Shown: positions 18,707 through 28,829 of the stretch, in pieces
Position numbering within the stretch: the first letter of the stretch is position 1
Layout of the letters: every line of letters starts with the position of its first letter
Source: Bacteroidota bacterium
GTDB lineage: Bacteria > Bacteroidota > Ignavibacteria > UBA10030 > SZUA-254
Assembly (NCBI GenBank): GCA_020056225.1
Contig: JAGVIE010000017.1
Span: 251-64,250 of the forward strand
Direction: 5' to 3'
DNA: 64,000 nt
Notes under the pieces: generated by a model
Told to the model about the DNA's origin: nothing
The model's input: only the letters and a program-made list of their open reading frames with translations
The model's database searches: none
Made by a program: the position numbers and the translations under genes

Positions 18707-20854
18707 TCATTTAACTACCAAAAATTTTCCTATTCGAACATCGCCCGTTTCATTATCTTTTACCGAAACGAGATACAAGCCGGTTGCAATGGCTTGATCG
18801 TACCGTGATATCAAATCCCACGCATGTTCACCGCCCGAAAACTGGGGAGGAGCGAGCAGTGTTTCAAATTTAGTGAACCAGTCTATATCTGAGCCATCGT
18901 ATGTCGATGCATCATGATCGATATTTGCAACAATATCTCCAGCCAATGTATATATCCGTATTTCACATCGTGCCGGGAGATTAAAAAAAATAATTTTTCT
19001 GTTTCTCTCGCCGCCGGTACTGCCATCCCAATATGCTTTGGCATAATAAGGATTCGGATAAATACCTATATCGGTCGATTTTTTCGAATTAGGCTTAGTA
19101 CCGGAGATAACCCTCACAATAGATTTAGGACTTTCATTATCCGGCGGAGATCCTGTATCAAAAGCCGCAACTCCATACATATACTGCCAGCCATTTAGGT
19201 GAGTCAGATTCATATCAACCGGCGGGAATCTATACCAATATTTATTGGTATCCTCAGGAAAAGTTTTAGGTTCATCCAATTTAACTCTGGAGAAACCTGT
19301 ATTATATCCAATATTATTCGTATCAATATCATACTCACCTACAAGAGCCATGTCGCTAAGGAAATTTTCCGGCGTAGTTATATCCACCCCTGCATTACTG
19401 CGATATACTCTATACCCTTCGAAATCTTTGGCTTGTGTTACAGGATCTACAGATTCTTCAGATGTAATTTTATCCCAATAAATTATCACACTATTATCTG
19501 CAACTTCAGCGCGCACCTTCGGACGTCGTGGAGGTTGGGATACGCTATAGCGAGTCAATTTTCCATCTCCGTTAAAATCTTCGCCTTCGTCAAGAATACC
19601 ATTACCGTTTAGGTCTTCTCCGTTATAAGTTTTCTGCGCCCATCCAAGATTATTAAACAATGTAGCTCTCTGTTCCGGATAGTCATATCTTGCGTGATCC
19701 TGTCCATATTTTTTAGCAGTAACAATTGCGAATATTACTTTCAGAGAATCGTGAGGATACATGGTTATGAAAGGTCCGGTAGAGAGTAATAACGTCGCAT
19801 TAGTCGGTGCGGTTCTAAGAGTAGCTATTTTCGAAGCTGACATAGAGGTTGTCATTCTTGCATATCGATTCATCCATCGATTTAGGTCTTCATCATCAAG
19901 AGAAGGAGAAAAGAATTCTTGGTCTCCTACTGATGTTCTAAATTTCCAGGCGTTGAAATATGTTTTAGTCGACAAATCACGAAGTGAATCGATTGTTTTT
20001 GGGAAAGGACTCACGCCAAGTAGACTCATAGCGATATAACTGCTCGCAGGTGGACCTTGATTATTTCCATCAAAATCGAATGCGTACGCCATCCTTCTTA
20101 CTGAATCGTATCCCGCGGCTACGTTGAAATATCCCGAACTGCCCGGTCGGACAAAGTTAGTATTCCTAACGACAAAATTGTTCCACAATCCAACGTAAAC
20201 AGAATCCAGAGTATCTATGACAACTTTTTGTGAATAAGGATCTTTATATCCCTCGTTATAGAAAGTGTAACTTAGTATTACAAAAAAATCGGCTGTGGGT
20301 AAATTCCATGCGTAACTTTCTTGTTTGACTTTCAATCCCAACGGTAGATGGTACGGTATGGTATCACCGGTAAGCGGGTCACGCACATATTTATCAGTGT
20401 ATTCACAAATGAAATCCAGATCACTCACAGCGCCATCGGTTGGTAAACCTGAGAATGGATCGATTGACCTTTTGATAATCCCAGACCCTTCCTCCGAAGT
20501 GAACTCATAATGTCTTCCGCTAACTCCGCTAAGGCTCCAATCTGTTGCACCGGTTGACACTGCGGCACGCCCCCTGAGACGAGAATAAGCGCCGAACCAT
20601 ACACCACCCTGATAGAGATGTTCAATACCCGATCCACGGGGATATTCTGCTGAATATTGTTCGGGCCAATATGCATTTCTTGCACCTATGGTTCCGTAAT
20701 TTGTCACAGTAAGCTGTAAATCACCTACATTGACAACCTGACGCTGATCTTTATCGGTTATCTTCGATAACGACCTAATTGATTCATCATCTTGCTGACT
20801 AAAAACAGTAATGGAATAAATGAAAAAATAAAACAAAATAAAGTTATGTTTCAT
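18707..20854 (-). CDS. Large secreted Ca-binding-repeat protein (715 aa), paralog of the 1204-aa protein at 41213-44827
   Basis: Signal peptide and D-x-D/N-G-rich repeats (DLNGNGILDEGEDFNGDGK). It shares an N-terminal block (EYPRGSGIEHLYQGG), a mid block (VIIYWDKI...KDFEGYRVYRS) and a divergent CTD ending GKFLVVK with the 1204-aa protein. Confidence 0.6.
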   Translation of the reverse strand: MKHNFILFYFFIYSITVFSQQDDESIRSLSKITDKDQRQVVNVGDLQLTVTNYGTIGARNAYWPEQYSAEYPRGSGIEHLYQGGVWFGAYSRLRGRAAVSTGATDWSLSGVSGRHYEFTSEEGSGIIKRSIDPFSGLPTDGAVSDLDFICEYTDKYVRDPLTGDTIPYHLPLGLKVKQESYAWNLPTADFFVILSYTFYNEGYKDPYSQKVVIDTLDSVYVGLWNNFVVRNTNFVRPGSSGYFNVAAGYDSVRRMAYAFDFDGNNQGPPASSYIAMSLLGVSPFPKTIDSLRDLSTKTYFNAWKFRTSVGDQEFFSPSLDDEDLNRWMNRYARMTTSMSASKIATLRTAPTNATLLLSTGPFITMYPHDSLKVIFAIVTAKKYGQDHARYDYPEQRATLFNNLGWAQKTYNGEDLNGNGILDEGEDFNGDGKLTRYSVSQPPRRPKVRAEVADNSVIIYWDKITSEESVDPVTQAKDFEGYRVYRSNAGVDITTPENFLSDMALVGEYDIDTNNIGYNTGFSRVKLDEPKTFPEDTNKYWYRFPPVDMNLTHLNGWQYMYGVAAFDTGSPPDNESPKSIVRVISGTKPNSKKSTDIGIYPNPYYAKAYWDGSTGGERNRKIIFFNLPARCEIRIYTLAGDIVANIDHDASTYDGSDIDWFTKFETLLAPPQFSGGEHAWDLISRYDQAIATGLYLVSVKDNETGDVRIGKFLVVK

Positions 20855-21195
20855 TAAGATACTCAGTAATTCCTTAGGAGATTTGTTGGATGGATATTAA
20901 ATGTGCAAAATGTAATTTCACGACCATTATTAAAAATAGATGTTCCGAGAATTTGGAAAATTGTCTTCTTTATACGAGAACTTAATGTTTTATCACCAAA
21001 TCAGGAGAAAACGCTTTCAAGTCTTAACGAATAAGGATTAATTCGATTGGACTAGATTAATGATTATTGCAAATATAAATCATTTTTTGAAGAAATCAAA
21101 ACTATTAGATTAGAAAATATAATGAATATATCACTGTTAATATTTGGTTAGGACACTATTAATTAAATCATTAGATAAATTTAATAAAAGCAATC

Positions 21196-21224
21196 TTGAC
21201 AGTTCAGCAGCAAATTTGTAACAT
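21196..21224 (+). promoter_or_regulatory. Sigma70-like promoter (TTGACA-17 nt-TAACAT)
   Basis: The -35 TTGACA at 21196-21201 and the -10 TAACAT at 21219-21224 are separated by a 17-nt spacer, in an AT-rich intergenic region. Confidence 0.4.
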
Positions 21225-21230
21225 ATTTTT

Positions 21231-21328
21231 AATGAATATCTTTTCACTCTATCGGTATCGTTTTTATGTGCCGATAGAAACCAAACCAAGCGCTCAGGTA
21301 AGCCCCCGACCTGAGCGTTTTGCTTTTT
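21231..21328 (+). ncRNA. Candidate small RNA or tRNA leader with two hairpins and an intrinsic terminator
   Basis: Hairpin 1 is tctatcgg...ccgataga (21248-21278). Hairpin 2 is gcgctcaggt...acctgagcg (21291-21317), followed by TTTTGCTTTTT. It lies directly downstream of the promoter and 38 nt upstream of tRNA-Ser. Confidence 0.3.
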
Positions 21329-21365
21329 AAAGAAATTCCCCTATATTTATTTCACAATAACGAAC

Positions 21366-21453
21366 GGAAAGGTGCAAGAGCGGTTGAATTGGCACGCCTG
21401 GAAAGTGTGTGACCGTCTAAAGCGGTCCGTGGGTTCGAATCCCACCCTTTCCG
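21366..21453 (+). tRNA. tRNA-Ser (anticodon GGA), type II
   Basis: GGAAAGG/CCTTTCC acceptor stem, anticodon stem CACGC/GTGTG with loop CTGGAAA, variable arm GACCG-TCTAAAG-CGGTC, and T-arm GTGGG-TTCGAAT-CCCAC. Confidence 0.8.
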
Positions 21454-21596
21454 CTGTTTAGTGTAATTATACTTTTATTTAATTGTACGTCAATACAGAA
21501 TCCGGTTTCTCCACAAATGCTCGCGCGCCGGATACAATGAAACCGAAAATATTTTTATATACCTAACTACTGAGATCGAATAAAGCTATTATTTAT

Positions 21597-22910
21597 ATGC
21601 TCTTCTTCTCAAAACACATTCAGAAATATTTTCACCTCCCGGTTATTCTTTTTCTTTTTATCGCGCCATCCAATATCATCGCACAGAGTAACAACGTTTA
21701 CGTAATCTCGATAGATGGTGCCATAAATCCTGCTTCATCGGATTTCATTCATGAAAGCATTCAAAAAGCCGAGGAAGCAAACGCACAATGTCTTGTCGTT
21801 TTACTTAATACTCCTGGCGGATTATTGAAATCAACTCGAGTAATCGTATCGGAATTTTTGAATTCTCCCATACCGATCGTTGTATATATCTCACCCGCCG
21901 GCTCGCAAGCGGCATCGGCAGGAGTTTTTATAACACTTGCGGCTCATATAGCAGTGATGTCACCCGGAACAAATATCGGCGCCGCTCATCCGATTACAAT
22001 CGGCGAACAAAAAGATTCTATCATGCTGGAAAAAGCTACAAATGACGCCGCCGCTTTTATTCGTACAATAAGCGAGAAGCGTCATCGTAACATCCGGTGG
22101 GCTGAAGATGCAGTCCGCAAAAGTATATCCATCACAGAAACGGAAGCGCTCAAGGAAAACGTTATCGATACAATCGCGTTAAATTTAAAATCTTTGCTTG
22201 CAATAATAGACAATCGAGAAATTGAAACAGCTTCAGGGAGACGAATTCTTCATACAAAAGATGCGAGTATCACAAACATCGAAAAAACCTTTCAGCAAAA
22301 GATACTTGATATCCTCAGTGATCCGAATATAGCGTATATCCTAATGATGCTTGGCATTTACGGATTATTGTTCGAACTATACAATCCAGGATCTATTCTT
22401 CCCGGTATTGTCGGATTTATCTGTCTCGTATTAGCATTTTATTCAATGCATACCCTCCCGATTAACTATGCCGGCTTGGCTTTAATTCTATTTGCAATTG
22501 TTCTCTTTCTTTTGGAAATTACAATCGTAAGCCATGGACTTTTAACCATAGGCGGTGTTATTTCTTTAGCATTAGGGTCGATTATGCTTATACAAACTGA
22601 TTCGATGTTAGAGTTTGTTTCAATATCATGGGAAGTTATCGCAATAACTATATTGATAACTGTTGCATTCTTCGCATTTGCTATTGGTATGGGAATTAAA
22701 GCGCAAAAACGCAAGCCGACAACAGGTGTGCAAGGAATCATCGGTGAAATCGGTGAGGTTAGTCAAGACCTCCGCCCAGAGGGAACAGTAAAAGTACATG
22801 GAGAAATCTGGAATGCGACAAGTCTTGATGGAAACCTAAAGAAAGGCGTAAAAGTTAAAGTTGAATCGATTGTTAATCTTAAATTAAAAGTCAGAAAATC
22901 AGAATCATAA
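21597..22910 (+). CDS. NfeD-like membrane-bound serine protease (ClpP-class), stomatin operon partner
   Basis: Signal/TM region, then the ClpP-like fold VISIDGAINPASSDFI...LLNTPGG, multiple TM helices, and a C-terminal OB-fold beta domain. Lies 7 bp upstream of an SPFH gene. Confidence 0.8.
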   Translation: MLFFSKHIQKYFHLPVILFLFIAPSNIIAQSNNVYVISIDGAINPASSDFIHESIQKAEEANAQCLVVLLNTPGGLLKSTRVIVSEFLNSPIPIVVYISPAGSQAASAGVFITLAAHIAVMSPGTNIGAAHPITIGEQKDSIMLEKATNDAAAFIRTISEKRHRNIRWAEDAVRKSISITETEALKENVIDTIALNLKSLLAIIDNREIETASGRRILHTKDASITNIEKTFQQKILDILSDPNIAYILMMLGIYGLLFELYNPGSILPGIVGFICLVLAFYSMHTLPINYAGLALILFAIVLFLLEITIVSHGLLTIGGVISLALGSIMLIQTDSMLEFVSISWEVIAITILITVAFFAFAIGMGIKAQKRKPTTGVQGIIGEIGEVSQDLRPEGTVKVHGEIWNATSLDGNLKKGVKVKVESIVNLKLKVRKSES

Positions 22911-22916
22911 ACCAAT

Positions 22917-23690
22917 TTGGAGGAATCCATGGAAGCTGTATCGATATTTTTTACAATGATAATAATATTTGGCATCATCATTCTCTCAAACGCCATCCGA
23001 GTTTTGCGTGAATATGAACGCGGAGTCATATTTCGATTAGGCAGACTTATTGCTACTAAAGGTCCGGGTATCATCTTTCTGATCCCGCTTGTCGATCGTA
23101 TGGTGAAAGTAAGTTTGCGGACTGTTGTTTTAGATGTTCCACCCCAAGACGTTATTACTAAAGATAACGTCTCGATAAAGGTCAATGCAGTATTATATTT
23201 TCGTGTTGTGCAACCGGAAAAAGCCATAGTGGAAGTCGAGAACTTCCTGTTTGCTACCTCTCAGCTATCACAAACGACTCTCAGGAGCATTTTAGGACAA
23301 TCAGAACTTGATGAGCTTCTCGCACAGCGTGATAAAATCAATCGTATGCTTCAGCAAATAATCGATGAACACACCGAACCATGGGGCATCAAAGTATCTA
23401 ATGTTGAAGTGAAGCAAATCGATCTTCCGATCGAAATGCAGCGCGCAATGGCAAAGCAGGCAGAAGCTGAGCGTGAACGCAGGGCAAAAGTTGTTCATGC
23501 TGAAGGCGAATTTCAAGCAAGTCAGAAACTTTCAGACGCTGCGAGAATCATCAGTGAAACGCCGATTGCATTACAATTAAGATATTTGCAGACTCTCACT
23601 GAAATCGGCGCTGATAAAAATTCTACGATCATATTCCCCTTGCCTATGGACATTATTGAGCCGTTCCTAGAGCGTGCAAGAAAAAAGTGA
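22917..23690 (+). CDS. SPFH/band-7 (stomatin-like) protein
   Basis: N-terminal TM helix and the band-7 core [12 protein letters not shown]...[15 protein letters not shown], with a coiled-coil C-terminus. Classic pairing with NfeD. Confidence 0.85.
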
Positions 23691-23699
23691 TATTACAAT

Positions 23700-26075
23700 G
23701 TGATGAACCAACTAATATACGGTGCTAATCAAGAAGAAAAGATTGTAGCCGTACATCCAGCGAGCGAACGCACGGTAAAAATGTTCATCAGAAATCCAGA
23801 GGGAATTATCTCTAATGAAATAGAGTTTTTCCCTTTTTTCTTTCTATCGAATCAAAAGTACCTAAGCGATTACCCAAAGAAGCATTGGATTAAGGAACTT
23901 ACAGGAGAGAACTACTACCGTTATCTATGCGTATTTAACGGTTGGTTGGATATGTGGGATGCAATCCGCCATTGTTTGGAGCGTTATAATGAAAACGCGC
24001 CGCAGAAAATAGATTCATATACCGAGATGCCGGTTCTTCGTGTCCGCACCGACCCGGTTGCCCAGTTCTTGAAGCAAAGCGGCCGTACACTTTTCAAAGG
24101 AATGAAGTTCGATGACCTGCACCGAATTCAGCTTAGCATTAAAACCTATGTAAAGCACGGTTTCAAAATCAGCAATCCAAACCGCGAGGAAGATCGCATT
24201 GTTGCAATTGCATTGTCCGATAATCATGGATGGGAATATCAGATTACTGGAAAGAGAAAATCAGAGAAAGAAATGCTTCTCGATCTGATTAAAGTATTGC
24301 AGGAAAAAGATGCGGACGTTATTGAAGGACATAATAGCATCGATAAACATATTCACTATTTGATGACAAGATGTGAAATCCACGGCTTGGAATTCAATAT
24401 TGGCAGAGACGGATCAATTCCCCACCACTCTGAAGCGCGTTCTTTGTACGGAGAACGAACGGCAAACTACATTCCATATGAGATCGTTGGCAGACACGTA
24501 ATCGATACTGCCACATTATTGCAATCGTACGATTCAACGAAACACGAATTAGACAATTATAATCTAGAACATGCGGCACAACATTTCGGTATTTCAAAAG
24601 TAGATCGTTTATATATATCACCGGATCGTGTAAGCTGGTACAGTGACAACGAACCCGATAATCTTGTCCAATCCAGTATCGATGATGTGCGCGAGATACG
24701 TTTACTCAGTGATTACCTGTCACCGGATTATTTCCACCAAACTCAAATGTTGCCGTTTAATTATGCGACAGTAACACGTTTGAATTCTAACAATAAAATC
24801 GAATCTCTATTACTCCGAGAATATATCCGGCAGAAGCATTCTATTCCCCGCCCGGAAATCGGTTCTCAACCTCAGATTGGGGGTTCAGAAATATTTTACA
24901 GAGGTCTACTTGGACCGATTATCGATCTCGATATAGAATCAATCTACCCATCAATCATATTAGCACATAATATTGTACCGAAGAATGACACACTCGGTGC
25001 ATTCCCGAAAATATTGAACGGCTTAACGGATCATCTCAGTGATCTTAAAAGACAAGTTAAAATAGCAGACAACTCGTATTCTAATGTCACAAGTGAAGCA
25101 ACTGAAATAGGGCTTAAGGTCTTGATAAATTCATTCTATGCATATATTGGGAACAGCCGTGCACTTTTTAACGATTATAAAGCCGCACGGACTATTGGAG
25201 AGGCAAGGCAAGATATGCTTCGTCAACTTATGTCTGCAATAACCTCTTTGAATGGCAAAGTGATCGAGATTGATTCCAACAGTATATGTTTTGTCCCTCC
25301 TGTAGCTGTCAATACTGAAACAAAGGAAAAGGAATTGTTAAAGAATATTGCCAGATGCCTTCCTTCGGGAATAACTTTGCAGATGAATGATAGATATAAA
25401 AGAATGCTGAGTTATAAAAAGAATAACTACGTACTTTTAGGATATGACGGTAAGGTAACAATAAAAGGGTCATCCCTTATACCGAGAAATATCGAGAGAT
25501 TCGGCCGCGAATTCATTACTCAGTGCATCTCAGCCATAATGAATCTAAATTTTACCTCTGTCCACGATTATTACATCGACTGCAATAAAGCAATTGTCGA
25601 GCGCAAACTGAGCATCCAGGATTTTGCCCGCATAGAAATTCTCCGAGATACCTATGATGAGTACACACAATCCGTTAATCGGGGTGACCGGTACCGCTCG
25701 GCAAGCTATGAAGTAGCAATCAACTCGGGAATGAATTGGAAACAAGGAGATAAAATATCGTATTACATTACGGGTGATGATACAAGCATCAAAGGATTTG
25801 ATCAGTATAAAGCCGCTATTGACTGGGATAAGAATTTCAGGGATGAGAATGTCGGTTATTACCTAAAACGATTAGAAGAATTGGCTAAAAGATTTGCATC
25901 ACTATTTTCTGAAAAAGATTATCATGCGTTGTTTTCTGTTGATGACCTTTTCGGATTTTCACCTGAAGGTATACAAATCCAGACAACACAGATAAAAGAG
26001 GAACCAAAAGATCTCGACGAAGAAACTGAACAAATACAAGTCGAGCCAAGAATCTGGCTTGATGAAGAGATTTAA
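23700..26075 (+). CDS. Family-B DNA polymerase (E. coli Pol II-like) homolog with substituted exonuclease and polymerase catalytic residues
   Basis: Collinear with Pol II across its length. The Exo II region DADVIEGHNSIDKH aligns to DPDVIIGWNVVQFD, motif A LDIESIYPSII to LDYKSLYPSII, motif B KVLINSFYAYIG to KIIMNAFYGVLG, and motif C VIEIDSNSI to VIYGDTDST. The Exo I acidic residues are A/S, the Exo II Asp is His, and the motif C second Asp is Asn. The true start is probably the ATG at 23703. It sits 9 bp after the SPFH gene. Confidence 0.7.
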   Translation: MMNQLIYGANQEEKIVAVHPASERTVKMFIRNPEGIISNEIEFFPFFFLSNQKYLSDYPKKHWIKELTGENYYRYLCVFNGWLDMWDAIRHCLERYNENAPQKIDSYTEMPVLRVRTDPVAQFLKQSGRTLFKGMKFDDLHRIQLSIKTYVKHGFKISNPNREEDRIVAIALSDNHGWEYQITGKRKSEKEMLLDLIKVLQEKDADVIEGHNSIDKHIHYLMTRCEIHGLEFNIGRDGSIPHHSEARSLYGERTANYIPYEIVGRHVIDTATLLQSYDSTKHELDNYNLEHAAQHFGISKVDRLYISPDRVSWYSDNEPDNLVQSSIDDVREIRLLSDYLSPDYFHQTQMLPFNYATVTRLNSNNKIESLLLREYIRQKHSIPRPEIGSQPQIGGSEIFYRGLLGPIIDLDIESIYPSIILAHNIVPKNDTLGAFPKILNGLTDHLSDLKRQVKIADNSYSNVTSEATEIGLKVLINSFYAYIGNSRALFNDYKAARTIGEARQDMLRQLMSAITSLNGKVIEIDSNSICFVPPVAVNTETKEKELLKNIARCLPSGITLQMNDRYKRMLSYKKNNYVLLGYDGKVTIKGSSLIPRNIERFGREFITQCISAIMNLNFTSVHDYYIDCNKAIVERKLSIQDFARIEILRDTYDEYTQSVNRGDRYRSASYEVAINSGMNWKQGDKISYYITGDDTSIKGFDQYKAAIDWDKNFRDENVGYYLKRLEELAKRFASLFSEKDYHALFSVDDLFGFSPEGIQIQTTQIKEEPKDLDEETEQIQVEPRIWLDEEI

Positions 26076-26085
26076 GTTCGAAATC

Positions 26086-26493
26086 TTAATACTGAATATT
26101 TACTGTAACCCAATTTTTTACGTAAGCAACTATGTCTATTGTCGATGCGCCAGGTGTGAATAATTCTCCGACCCCCTTTTTCTTTAACACTTGGATATCT
26201 TGATCCGGTATTATTCCTCCTCCGAAGAGTAAGACATCTTTAAGCCCTTTATCTCTCATTAGATCGAGTATACGGGGGAATATCGTCATGTGCGCGCCGC
26301 TTAATATGCTGACACCTATTGCATTAACATCCTCTTGAAGAGCCGCTTCAACTACCATCTCTGGCGTCTTCCGGAGACCTGTGTAAATTACTTCCATACC
26401 GGAATCCCTAAGGGCGGCAGCAATGACTTTTGCGCCACGATCATGACCGTCGAGCCCGACTTTTGCAACTAATACTCTTATTTTTCTGTCCAT
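26086..26493 (-). CDS. Stand-alone cobalamin (B12)-binding domain protein (methylmalonyl-CoA mutase small-subunit-like)
   Basis: DGHDRG (DxHxxG) B12-binding motif within a Rossmann-like sequence, and an SxL...GG motif. Length 135 aa. Confidence 0.8.
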
Positions 26494-26502
26494 AGCAGCT
26501 CC

Positions 26503-27096
26503 TTACAAAATTCCTAATGATTCTTGAAATTGTTGCATAGCAAGATAAAACTTTGCCAATGGAAATCCAACTACATTATAAAAACATCCGTCGATTTTTT
26601 CAACGAAGACTGCCCCGTAATCATCTTGTATTCCATAAGCGCCAGCTTTATCCATGGGTGATCCCGATCGGACGTATTCTTCAATTTCGTCGTTAGTCAA
26701 TAGTCTAAACGTTACATCTGTTACCGCATGATCTGTCAACGCCAAGTTCGAAGGTCTATCCAGTATAGTAAATCCGGTAAATACCCTGTGCGTTCTTCCG
26801 CTTAGTGTACGAAGCATGTTAATGGCATCTTTTTCGTCGGCTGGTTTTCCCAATATATTTCCATCAAGTTCAACAATCGTATCGGCTCCGATAACAAAAC
26901 CATTCTCAATATTTTTCCCGACTTCAACAGCTTTCCGATGAGATAGTATCTTTACATGATCGAGCGGCGCCTGGATGTGCTCGAAATCCTCATCGACTCC
27001 ACTTTCCTGAACGATAAATTCCAACCCGATTTGCCGCAACAAAATTTGTCTGCGTGGGGAACGAGACGCGAGGATTATCTTTTTCTTAACTAACAT
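26503..27096 (-). CDS. maf: Maf-like nucleoside triphosphate pyrophosphatase
   Basis: ILASRSPRRQILL N-terminus and conserved Maf core, 197 aa. Confidence 0.85.
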   Translation of the reverse strand: MLVKKKIILASRSPRRQILLRQIGLEFIVQESGVDEDFEHIQAPLDHVKILSHRKAVEVGKNIENGFVIGADTIVELDGNILGKPADEKDAINMLRTLSGRTHRVFTGFTILDRPSNLALTDHAVTDVTFRLLTNDEIEEYVRSGSPMDKAGAYGIQDDYGAVFVEKIDGCFYNVVGFPLAKFYLAMQQFQESLGIL

Positions 27097-27111
27097 TTAT
27101 TAATAATTGAT

Positions 27112-27145
27112 TGAATAAAAAAAGAGCGATTGAAATTTTCGCTCT
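27112..27145 (-). terminator. Rho-independent terminator after the 139-aa gene
   Basis: Minus-strand hairpin AGAGCGAAAATTTCAATCGCTCT followed by a T9 run. Confidence 0.55.
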
Positions 27146-27176
27146 TCAGATGAAATAAAACTCATGAAATAGATAT

Positions 27177-27596
27177 TTACCGAAACATCGCCTTGATGCT
27201 TCCCCATGTACGACGTACGCCGGATACATTATGATAAACTGTAATAGGTGCTTCGTTCAATGCCGGGAAGTAGCTTTCGCTGTCAGCAAATTTTACTTTT
27301 ATCCGGTAATAATATACAGTCGTCGTTCTTCTGAATGCCCATGTATCTACAAACTCATAACCTGAGGGACCTTTAGGAGTAATCAAATCAGAAATGGCAA
27401 CAAATCCACCTGAGTAACTCGTGCTTCGTAGAACTTCAAAACCGACAACATTCGCCTCGTTCTCAGTTACCCACGTGATGGTAACATTATTACCATCGCT
27501 CGATGCCTGTATCAATCCGGATTTAATGACATCGGCGAGAAGAATTCCCGATAAAAATAGAACAAAAAATATGTAAAGTAATGTCCTCTTAGCCAT
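27177..27596 (-). CDS. Small secreted Fn3-like protein of unknown function
   Basis: Signal peptide, 139 aa, with Fn3-like motifs (VTITWVTENEANVVGFEVLRS...YYYRIKV). Confidence 0.5.
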   Translation of the reverse strand: MAKRTLLYIFFVLFLSGILLADVIKSGLIQASSDGNNVTITWVTENEANVVGFEVLRSTSYSGGFVAISDLITPKGPSGYEFVDTWAFRRTTTVYYYRIKVKFADSESYFPALNEAPITVYHNVSGVRRTWGSIKAMFR

Positions 27597-27657
27597 AATT
27601 ACTAATTGAAGATATGAAGGAAGAAGGAGAAAGTCAAGTGTTTTTTGATATTTTCAG

Positions 27658-27741
27658 TGCGCGAGGCGAGACTTGAACTCGCATGCCCTTCCGGGCGCCA
27701 CCCCCTCAAGATGGTGTGTCTGCCAGTTCCACCACTCGCGC
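27658..27741 (-). tRNA. tRNA-Leu (anticodon GAG), type II
   Basis: The reverse complement has a GCGCGAG acceptor stem, anticodon stem CCATC/GGTGG with loop TTGAGGG, variable arm GCCC-GGAA-GGGC, and T-arm GCGAG-TTCAAGT-CTCGC. The two ORFs called here are spurious. Confidence 0.8.
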
Positions 27742-27810
27742 AAATTATATCAAAATTCAAAAGGATAAAGTAGAAAAAAGCTTGATATTCAAATTGATAC
27801 GGCGTTTTTG

Positions 27811-27883
27811 TGAACCCGGTTGGATTCGAACCAACGGCCCTCGCCTTAAAAGGGCGATGCTCTACCAGCTGAGCTACGGGTTC
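27811..27883 (-). tRNA. tRNA-Lys (anticodon TTT)
   Basis: The reverse complement reads GAACCCG-TA-GCTC-AGCTGGTAGAGC-A-TCGCC-CTTTTAA-GGCGA-GGGCC-GTTGG-TTCGAAT-CCAAC-CGGGTTC-A. Confidence 0.85.
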
Positions 27884-28109
27884 CTCACCAAATAATAGCA
27901 TTAAGCTTTATTTCAGCTTAAAAATATAAGAAAAATATTCGGGAGTAGCAAGAGGATTGTCATCTATTCTATCAATTTATGATGAAACGCCATTAGATTA
28001 ACGCTAACAGTATGCTCGTGGAGATGAAAATCGATGTTATATTTAAGCTCATGTCAATATGCGAATCATTTCCACTGTCGAATCAATCCTGAAAGTGAGT
28101 CGTAAATCG

Positions 28110-28829
28110 TTATCCTGCCGGTTCAATGCATGCCGATGTATCATCACGACTATTGTTTACCGCATACGAAACAATATACGCATCCATCTCATTCTCAGGA
28201 TAGGGATCTAACAAATCGTAGAGTGTTTCGAAATCTTTGACACCAGTTTCAAGCCAGAGCTTTAAATCGTTATCATTTAATATCACCGGCATCCTATTAT
28301 GAATTGGTTTCATTAATTCGTTCGGACTTGTGGTGATGATCCCCGCAGTTACAATCTTTTTCTCCTCTACTTCAATCGAACGCCATAAACCGGCAAGCGC
28401 AAATGGTTGTTTATTTTTCATTGTGATGCGATAAGGTATTTTCTTTACACCTTTTGGTAATTTCTCGCCCCTAACAAGACTCTCGTAACCCTTGGGTTTC
28501 TTCCACTCATAAAATCCATCAGCGACAAAGATACAGCGATTAGTTAATAATCGTTCCCGGAAGAATTTATTTCTCTCGATTGTATCATCCCGAATGTTTG
28601 CCTGAGAAGTGTTTGAATCATTATCTTTCTCACCCCATGGTGTGATGAATCCCCAAAACATATTCGTAAGGTAGCGCTTACCATCTTTTGATACGATAAC
28701 CGGAACCGATTGCCCCGGCGCTGCATTATAACGGGGTTTGAACCCATCAAAACCAGGCGCTACTTCAGCTTTGAATCGTTCAAGTACAAGTTCTACTCTG
28801 TCCGTTGTTATAGTAAATCTGCCGCACAT
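28110..28829 (-). CDS. SOS-response-associated peptidase (SRAP/YedK, abasic-site DNA-protein crosslink family)
   Basis: Invariant N-terminal MCGRF (catalytic Cys2), 239 aa. Confidence 0.8.
   Translation of the reverse strand: MCGRFTITTDRVELVLERFKAEVAPGFDGFKPRYNAAPGQSVPVIVSKDGKRYLTNMFWGFITPWGEKDNDSNTSQANIRDDTIERNKFFRERLLTNRCIFVADGFYEWKKPKGYESLVRGEKLPKGVKKIPYRITMKNKQPFALAGLWRSIEVEEKKIVTAGIITTSPNELMKPIHNRMPVILNDNDLKLWLETGVKDFETLYDLLDPYPENEMDAYIVSYAVNNSRDDTSACIEPAG

Follow-up and report, generated by a model that had tools for sequence, protein, structure and literature searches.

Conserved order of an NfeD-stomatin cassette and a repeatedly decaying G3-group DNA polymerase gene in Ignavibacteria, a probable product of gene-order history

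The 64,000-nt stretch of a Bacteroidota genome analysed here (class Ignavibacteria; contig JAGVIE010000017.1, assembly GCA_020056225.1; hereafter the window) carries, one behind the other, genes for an NfeD membrane protease, a stomatin-like SPFH protein and a family B DNA polymerase homologue (PolB) with degenerate active sites. A first-pass annotation of this DNA had described them as an apparent operon, and had proposed that a crippled polymerase fold is thereby coupled to a membrane protease and scaffold. The gene order turns out to be conserved well beyond this genome, but it probably reflects a lineage-specific history rather than a partnership: in the explanation that we favour, though with some reserve, an NfeD-stomatin cassette lies before a polB of bacterial group G3, which is transcribed by read-through without any function being shared, and the dead polB of the window is kept for a non-catalytic role. 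What is new is that G3 PolB has decayed catalytically again and again in Ignavibacteria, nearly always where the three genes are linked; these degenerate proteins are new because G3 has been described with conserved active sites.

The three genes show the usual features of an operon: they lie on the same strand, are separated by short gaps, have no terminator between them and keep their order across species (Table 1). The co-directional, operon-like arrangement without visible terminator that had been annotated thus holds, as do the short gaps, whereas the values of 7 and 9 bp do not. For stomatin, the most probable start is ATG 22929, as a GGAGGA motif (22919-22924) ends 5 nt before it, and not at the mechanical open reading frame (ORF) start, TTG 22917. 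Similarly, polB starts at ATG 23703 and not at the mechanical GTG 23700, because homologues open with MN.L(L/I)YG and the relatives L081 and L082 share the ..TGATGAAC junction. With these corrections, the gaps are 18 bp between NfeD and stomatin and 12 bp between stomatin and polB, instead of the 6 and 9 bp given by the mechanical starts.

A scan of GTDB species-representative genomes returned 80 polB loci, in Ignavibacteria-like metagenome-assembled genomes, Kryptonia, Chlorobi (Chlorobium, Prosthecochloris, Chloroherpetonaceae) and Rhodothermales/Salinibacter. In 23 of these 80 genomes, NfeD and SPFH genes stand directly 5' of polB on the same strand, with PolB identity falling to about 43%, and the same order is found in about 11 metagenome contigs (L081-83, L085, L086, L136, L164-168 and the P0041 contig). 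The neighbourhood comparison that had been suggested therefore places the linkage beyond this genome, and all linked loci are Ignavibacteria-like. In 21 of 24 loci, SPFH and polB are separated by -4 to 27 bp, five of these loci having a -4 bp ATGA overlap, and longer gaps of 72 and 111 bp occur in L026 and L027.

Given such gaps in most linked loci, co-transcription of NfeD, SPFH and polB is likely, and is the most economical reading of the arrangement. Could polB nevertheless be transcribed alone, from a promoter in the 3' part of the stomatin gene, the three genes being neighbours and not one operon? Promoter types of Ignavibacteria are too poorly known to be scanned for, the gaps of L026 and L027 are longer, and one Bacteroidetes-type TAnnTTTG box does lie inside the stomatin gene, at 23110. 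We give this possibility only a slim chance, since no terminator follows stomatin, and the usual gaps, start/stop overlaps included, leave no room between stomatin and polB for the separate promoter and terminator that the annotation had named as evidence against its reading. The box at 23110 and a second one in polB occur at chance frequency (71 sites on both strands of the window), sigma-70 promoter-like matches in the region are likewise at chance (16 found, 18.5 expected), and both scans are uninformative for this phylum. Terminator-like matches amount to weak intragenic hairpins (7 found, 5.0 +/- 2.1 expected).

The first two genes form a module that looks ordinary from its sequence. NfeD has the Pfam domains NfeD1b_N, NfeD_membrane and NfeD, matches the Pyrococcus PH1510 structures (PDB 2DEO/3BPP) at 4e-33, and keeps the Ser-Lys dyad, with S107 and K146 aligned to the catalytic Ser97 and Lys138 of 2DEO and 6M4B. 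By sequence it is thus a PH1510-type NfeD/STOPP protein, whose predicted ClpP-like N-domain bears the dyad and is joined to a membrane domain and, at the C-terminus, to an OB-fold NfeD domain. The second product (Pfam Band_7, 5.8e-37) is by sequence a true stomatin: it is closest to human stomatin (5e-77) and PH1511 (4e-68), as compared with HflK (5e-11) and prohibitin (2e-06), and a 17-residue hydrophobic stretch is directly visible at its N-terminus. PADLOC gave no defence-system match for NfeD or SPFH; PolB matched only a homing-endonuclease model, via shared PolB sequence, and received no defence assignment. In one metagenome locus (L164:1922-3215, on a 1.4-Mb contig), two overlapping ORFs (253 + 181 aa) take the place of a single NfeD gene, owing to either a frameshift or a long-read assembly error.

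This NfeD-SPFH pair behaves as a separable 2.1-kb cassette, present or absent between tRNA-Ser(GGA) and polB. In eight linked loci, tRNA-Ser(GGA) is found 12-63 bp before NfeD, and in nine unlinked Ignavibacteria-type loci it is found 52-416 bp before polB itself, without NfeD-SPFH. Linked and unlinked loci have in common the downstream B12-binding, Maf and 139-aa genes and the tRNA-Leu and tRNA-Lys genes, these two tRNAs being located 3.9-5.5 kb after the polB start in both kinds of Ignavibacteria loci; the B12-binding/Maf/139-aa genes adjoin polB in 29-35 of the 80 genomes, more than NfeD-SPFH does. Scored at the tRNA-Ser/polB site only, the cassette is missing in about 52 of the 75 genomes with a readable upstream side, and from all Chlorobi, Kryptonia and Rhodothermales polB sites; elsewhere polB is preceded by unrelated housekeeping genes, for example by mnmG in Chlorobi, and by citrate synthase-udk or an RsmB-like gene in Kryptonia. 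A Chloroherpetonaceae locus (L059:151-2207) is the only one outside Ignavibacteria with a nearby pair, about 5 kb 5' of polB with mnmG between.

In the unlinked loci, a terminator hairpin follows the tRNA and a clade-conserved box precedes polB, which therefore has its own upstream region there. This box, GATTGAATTGATTTTCTC ... CTTTTCTACTTTT, lies just before polB in the tRNA-Ser-polB spacer of cassette-free genomes (L008:6851-7001, L009, L013, L047 and L043), and may be an ancestral polB promoter or operator. The spacers between tRNA-Ser and the next gene hold no regulatory motif common to linked and unlinked loci, the box being restricted to the unlinked clade.

The reverse view, taken from the 80 metagenome stomatins closest to that of the window (67-83% identity), is similar. 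NfeD lies 5' of these stomatins nearly wherever room exists, but polB comes next after NfeD-SPFH in only 3 of the 65 loci with downstream sequence; the other 62 precede more than 40 different genes, about half of them on the opposite strand. Thus, neither from the polB side nor from the NfeD-SPFH side do the partners co-occur as those of a functionally coupled module would.

These observations bear directly on functional coupling, in which the PolB-like protein would work with the stomatin/NfeD complex, as a membrane-tethered DNA-binding, sensing or repair-recruiting factor, and so keep the genes together. Such coupling would suit the tight spacing and ATGA overlaps, an order that holds in more than 30 separate loci, with PolB identity as low as 34-45%, and the fact that nearly all degenerate PolBs are linked. 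We consider it unlikely, because most linked PolBs (19 of 23) are catalytically intact G3 enzymes, so that it is not a crippled fold in particular that accompanies the membrane module, and because sister lineages keep the whole frame from tRNA-Ser through polB to B12-binding/Maf/tRNA-Leu/tRNA-Lys without the pair, itself found before many unrelated genes. Moreover, neither a membrane segment nor an extra domain is present in PolB, which aligns over its whole length with soluble archaeal PolBs, and no known defence family matches. Polymerases go unmentioned in a survey of SPFH operons (PMC2636767), and searches of the available literature for a polymerase-stomatin link returned nothing. Membrane tethering, nucleic-acid sensing and repair recruitment, as put forward by the annotation, are thus without support here: nothing found speaks for a working partnership of polymerase and scaffold, and the behaviour of the cassette argues against it.

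The polymerase itself was assigned to family B from Pfam matches (DNA_pol_B, 1.3e-15; DNA_pol_B_exo1, 4e-9) and from 606 database homologues of 770-820 aa, labelled Ignavibacteria or Bacteroidota. In profile searches against PDB, archaeal B3-type enzymes are closest (3e-59, Thermococcales PolB), and E. coli Pol II follows at 2.5e-19. The family consensus is fully catalytic, with ExoI DIET, ExoII NxxxFD, ExoIII YxxxD, motif A DxxSLYPS, motif B KxxxNSxYG and motif C EVDTDG. Two features matched by the published description place it in bacterial group G3, the EpsilonN-like clade of Kazlauskas et al., described in 2020 and still uncharacterised. The first is a Glu two residues before motif C, kept in the window (IEIDSN, against (V/I)EVDTDG in orthologues); a conserved Glu before the motif C aspartates is a G3 synapomorphy, common to PolEpsilonN and B10 (PMC7544198). 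The second is its presence in all Chlorobi, G3 being the PolB reported in every Chlorobi species (PMC12926913): Prosthecochloris and Chlorobium provide full-length matches (38-40% identity) that fall in the same alignment and tree as the window protein. G3 has been reported with conserved exonuclease and polymerase active sites and a clamp-binding motif (PMC12926913), and DDLFGF near the C-terminus, which the window protein shares with most of the aligned family (L749, F750 and F752 invariant in the 22-sequence alignment A1), may be this motif. Membership of archaeal PolB2/bacterial G2, a group nested in archaeal B2 and lacking ExoIII altogether, was considered and rejected, as the window protein still has an ExoIII region (..IDDVRE) and its place in the tree is among intact G3 orthologues. 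No second PolB copy was found in a search of the window.

Against this consensus, and by comparison with more than 100 homologues, the window protein has lost the ExoI, ExoII and ExoIII residues and the second Asp of motif C, while the motif A Asp is kept. By sequence, it is therefore predicted to be inactive both as exonuclease and as polymerase, in agreement with the annotation. The full fold is nevertheless kept: an AlphaFold model (predicted local distance difference test score, pLDDT, 84; predicted template-modelling score, pTM, 0.74) aligns in Foldseek with full-length archaeal KOD and 9N polymerases over about 790 columns (TM 0.70-0.73), with predicted N-terminal, 3'-5' exonuclease, palm, fingers and thumb domains.

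Is such a gene simply on its way out? A functionless, pseudogene-like remnant, with too little time elapsed for its loss, would explain why five catalytic or near-catalytic residues are lost, why branches are long and why the Pfam score is weak. However, there is no stop or frameshift in its 790 codons, over 12 degenerate lineages (34-63% identity) are equally free of them, and the model is confident over the full length. The ratio of non-synonymous to synonymous substitution rates (dN/dS) is 0.196 between the polBs of the window and its 94% identical relative L001 (58.5 non-synonymous differences against 103.6 expected if neutral, p = 3e-18), and 0.188 in a second, independent degenerate pair (L004/L005, p = 6e-37), as compared with 0.04-0.09 in intact pairs. 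Constraint on degenerate polB is thus relaxed two- to five-fold, yet clearly purifying, and since the ORF is intact, the model confident and dN/dS far below 1, the window polB is not a pseudogene; the remnant hypothesis appears highly improbable. Of the columns that are at least 95% conserved, 79% are kept in the window protein. Palm and fingers are the most relaxed, with an identity to the intact consensus of 0.48 as against 0.70 in intact members, and the N-terminal domain is the least so (0.56, intact members 0.62).

A different possibility is that the protein still polymerizes despite D526N, as an error-prone translesion enzyme without proofreading. Asp and Tyr of motif A, Lys, Asn and Tyr of motif B, the first Asp of motif C and KKxNY all survive in it. 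Nine related lineages keep a perfect polymerase site and lack only the exonuclease, and translesion roles commonly arise with exonuclease loss as the first step. A parallel exists in archaeal PolB2 (PMC8764526; PMC7544198). However, the relaxation centred on palm and fingers argues against conserved polymerization, and sister degenerate lineages lose other essentials, such as the motif A Asp in L004/L005 or several motifs in L136. In characterised B-family polymerases, the second Asp of DTD is an indispensable metal ligand. The loss tolerated in piPolB and B2 concerns the first Asp (PMC7544198). On balance, translesion synthesis by the window protein seems improbable.

Catalytic decay is by no means restricted to the window. 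The comparison covered 127 PolB sequences, namely the window copy, 119 homologue clusters and some extra loci, in a list ordered by resemblance to the window. In 12 of them exonuclease and polymerase residues are both lost, in 9 only those of the exonuclease, and about 1 in 6 of the 120 closest homologue clusters is degenerate in some way. In a neighbour-joining tree, the window falls inside one large degenerate clade (window and P0002, P0006, P0041/56, P0011/18/35) with exonuclease-only forms at its base, and further independent cases are seen in P0073/106, L043, L136, P0017/21/27, P0022, P0029/38 and P0114. The essentials lost differ between branches, L136 having lost nearly all motifs. All 37 PolB copies of Chlorobi, Kryptonia and Rhodothermales are intact, and the linkage predates inactivation and is independent of it, since 19 of the 23 linked genomes have a polB without any loss of catalytic motifs.

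The explanation that we favour can then be summarised as follows. A self-contained, ordinary NfeD-stomatin operon, encoding a protease and its scaffold substrate, forms the 2.1-kb cassette between tRNA-Ser(GGA) and a chromosomal G3 polB, and cassette and polB sit in a longer conserved block ending with B12-binding/Maf/tRNA-Leu/tRNA-Lys. As cassette and polB are at most about 30 bp apart, and overlap by 4 bp in some loci, polB is most likely transcribed by read-through from the promoter of NfeD (or of tRNA-Ser), and some linked polBs may be translationally coupled to stomatin through their ATGA overlaps. Their adjacency would reflect gene-order history and not a shared biochemical function. In the sublineage of the window, and independently in several others, the exonuclease residues of polB and its essential second motif C Asp have been lost, and the retained protein most likely serves without catalysis, as is typical of dead polymerases that are kept, in binding DNA, primer ends or the clamp, or in a structural repair role.

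Several points weigh against this explanation. Co-transcription is deduced only from spacing, and a promoter inside the stomatin coding region is possible. The linkage outlasts the usual random adjacency, with PolB identity at 43-45% and synonymous divergence (dS) saturated. Cassette absence was scored at the tRNA-Ser/polB site, and genomes without it there may carry NfeD-SPFH elsewhere. The inactivity of the window PolB is a prediction from its residues, and archaeal PolB2 was also predicted to be dead before it was proved active (PMC8764526). Finally, 14 of the 15 degenerate PolBs with readable context are linked, the only exception being L043. Does this last pattern, which pure gene-order accident does not predict, reflect biology or sampling? 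It could be either, because the cases cluster in the phylogeny and the lists, ordered by likeness to the window, are biased towards its relatives; the pattern still hints at a connection, and keeps a functional or regulatory link alive. For example, its position behind NfeD-stomatin may have changed the expression or use of polB, repeatedly driving or permitting catalytic loss, with the dead G3 protein gaining a non-catalytic job tied to the membrane module, for instance by anchoring the clamp or DNA at the membrane, or by acting as a regulator linked to stress. If true, this would explain why 14 of 15 degenerate PolBs are linked, but we regard it as doubtful.

Table 1. Annotated features of the locus, in window coordinates
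Feature	Position	Strand	Basis
First hairpin of possible small RNA, 5' of the tRNA	21248-21278	+	RNA fold; kept only in close relative L001
Intrinsic-terminator-like hairpin CGCTCAGG..CCTGAGCG, then TTTTGCTTTTT U-run, just 5' of tRNA-Ser	21288-21331	+	
tRNA-Ser(GGA), left anchor of syntenic block	21366-21454	+	ARAGORN and Rfam
NfeD1b-type membrane protease (STOPP; PH1510-like), 437 aa	21597-22910	+	Pfam, PDB alignment
Stomatin-type SPFH protein, 253 aa	22929-23690	+	Band_7, GGAGGA before ATG
G3-group family B DNA polymerase homologue, degenerate active sites, 790 aa	23703-26075	+	
ExoI motif, family DIE to SIK (D145S, E147K; DIET to SIKT)	24135-24143	+	
ExoII catalytic Asp replaced, D216H (NxxxFD to NSIDKH; NFD to DKH)	24348-24350	+	
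ExoIII Tyr replaced, Y324S (S...D, family Y...D)	24672-24674	+	
Motif A catalytic Asp D410 kept (DIESIYPS)	24930-24932	+	
Motif C, family DTD to DSN (D524 kept, D526N), preceding G3-typical Glu kept	25272-25280	+	
DDLFGF, candidate beta-clamp-binding motif	25941-25958	+	C-terminal alignment of 80 orthologues
Convergent conserved block: B12-binding domain protein (26086-26493), Maf (26503-27096), 139-aa protein (27177-27596)	26086-27596	-	Pfam
tRNA-Leu(GAG) and tRNA-Lys(UUU), right anchor of syntenic block	27657-27883	-	

The terminator-like small RNA (sRNA)/tRNA block that had been annotated upstream of NfeD is indeed present, as tRNA-Ser(GGA) preceded by a hairpin with a U-run. The region 21225-21345 folds at -36.7 kcal/mol (z = -6.6 against 200 shuffles), and the terminator-like stem and its U-run are kept in L001, L003 and L006. 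A promoter-like TTGACA-17-TAACAT site (21196-21224) and two hairpins (21230-21331) lie within a 500-bp non-coding stretch before tRNA-Ser, and the hairpin pair may represent an sRNA of roughly 100 nt; a permissive Rfam search of 20500-28200 returned three tRNAs only, and no family for the upstream hairpins. About 20 nt 5' of tRNA-Ser (window 21336-21365), a CTATATT(T/G) box is kept at aligned positions in L001, L002, L003 and L006; it resembles the Bacteroidetes -7 element TAnnTTTG, exactly so in L001 and L002.

On the other side of the tRNA, L001 (4453-4895) carries a GIY-YIG ORF of about 100 aa (Pfam 2.9e-13) directly 3' of tRNA-Ser(GGA), followed by a duplicated 3' part of the tRNA whose T-loop is broken by two GC-rich hairpins. 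The same insertion is found at L002:781-1106, L012:1854-2264, L015:1444-1860 and L019:4476-4894, the window representing the empty site (21454/21455), and it looks like a tiny tRNA-targeting mobile element, because window and L001 are otherwise colinear. L021 (4597-4868) has two tandem pseudo-tRNA-Ser 3' fragments with the same hairpin-interrupted T-arm, without the GIY-YIG ORF, which may be a footprint of this element. An integrase-type insertion of the NfeD-SPFH cassette was also considered and rejected, as no target duplication of the tRNA-Ser 3' end flanks it, the duplications belonging to the separate GIY-YIG insertion. In L026 (4764-4809), a perfect palindrome CAATTGTCAAT..ATTGACAATTG between tRNA-Ser and NfeD may be an operator.

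Downstream, the stop codons of polB and of the convergent B12-binding-domain gene are 10 bp apart (26075-26086), with no terminator structure between, and the 139-aa protein, though conserved, has no Pfam match. At 2 kb from polB, the window has an SRAP/YedK-type gene for abasic-site processing (28110-28829, minus strand), which is found in L081 as well (Pfam SRAP) but is common to close relatives only. Further upstream, a 715-aa secreted protein with a C-terminus of the type IX secretion system kind (18707-20854, minus strand) has no Pfam match.

G3 is the second most common bacterial B-family polymerase, without known function and previously described as uniformly active. The Ignavibacteria proteins provide a natural series from intact through exonuclease-dead to fully dead, which can be used for probing roles besides DNA synthesis. 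The conserved NfeD-stomatin-polB order offers an experimental handle, as one promoter probably drives both a membrane module and a DNA enzyme, while the evidence cautions against reading their adjacency as a functional partnership.

Taken together, the locus combines traits of several known systems. With the PH1510-PH1511 pair of Pyrococcus horikoshii (SPFH1 type; Hinderhofer et al. 2009, PMC2636767), it shares the order NfeD then stomatin, the three NfeD domains with their Ser-Lys dyad, and a stomatin close to PH1511; it differs by a polymerase gene within 12 bp, which lies outside the described module and is absent from 62 of the 65 related loci. As in described G3 members, PolB has the canonical N-terminal, exonuclease and polymerase architecture, the motif C Glu, orthologues in Chlorobium and Prosthecochloris and a C-terminal LF-type motif, but it lacks the ExoI, ExoII and ExoIII residues and the second motif C Asp of active sites described as conserved in G3. 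E. coli Pol II (G1) is likewise a chromosomal accessory bacterial family B polymerase with an exonuclease domain and a clamp motif, for which DDLFGF is the candidate in the window PolB, although it is far more distant from the window PolB than Thermococcales PolB is, and no SOS box was identified here. Parallels to the fate of the window PolB are found in retained inactive PolBs, such as archaeal PolB2/G2 and the C-terminal half of eukaryotic Pol epsilon, in which the full fold is selected after catalytic loss. PolB2 has since been shown to be active. In contrast to PolB2/G2, the decay seen here arose inside G3, in a protein whose ExoIII region is still present, and is recent, patchy and repeated rather than the trait of a whole ancient group.

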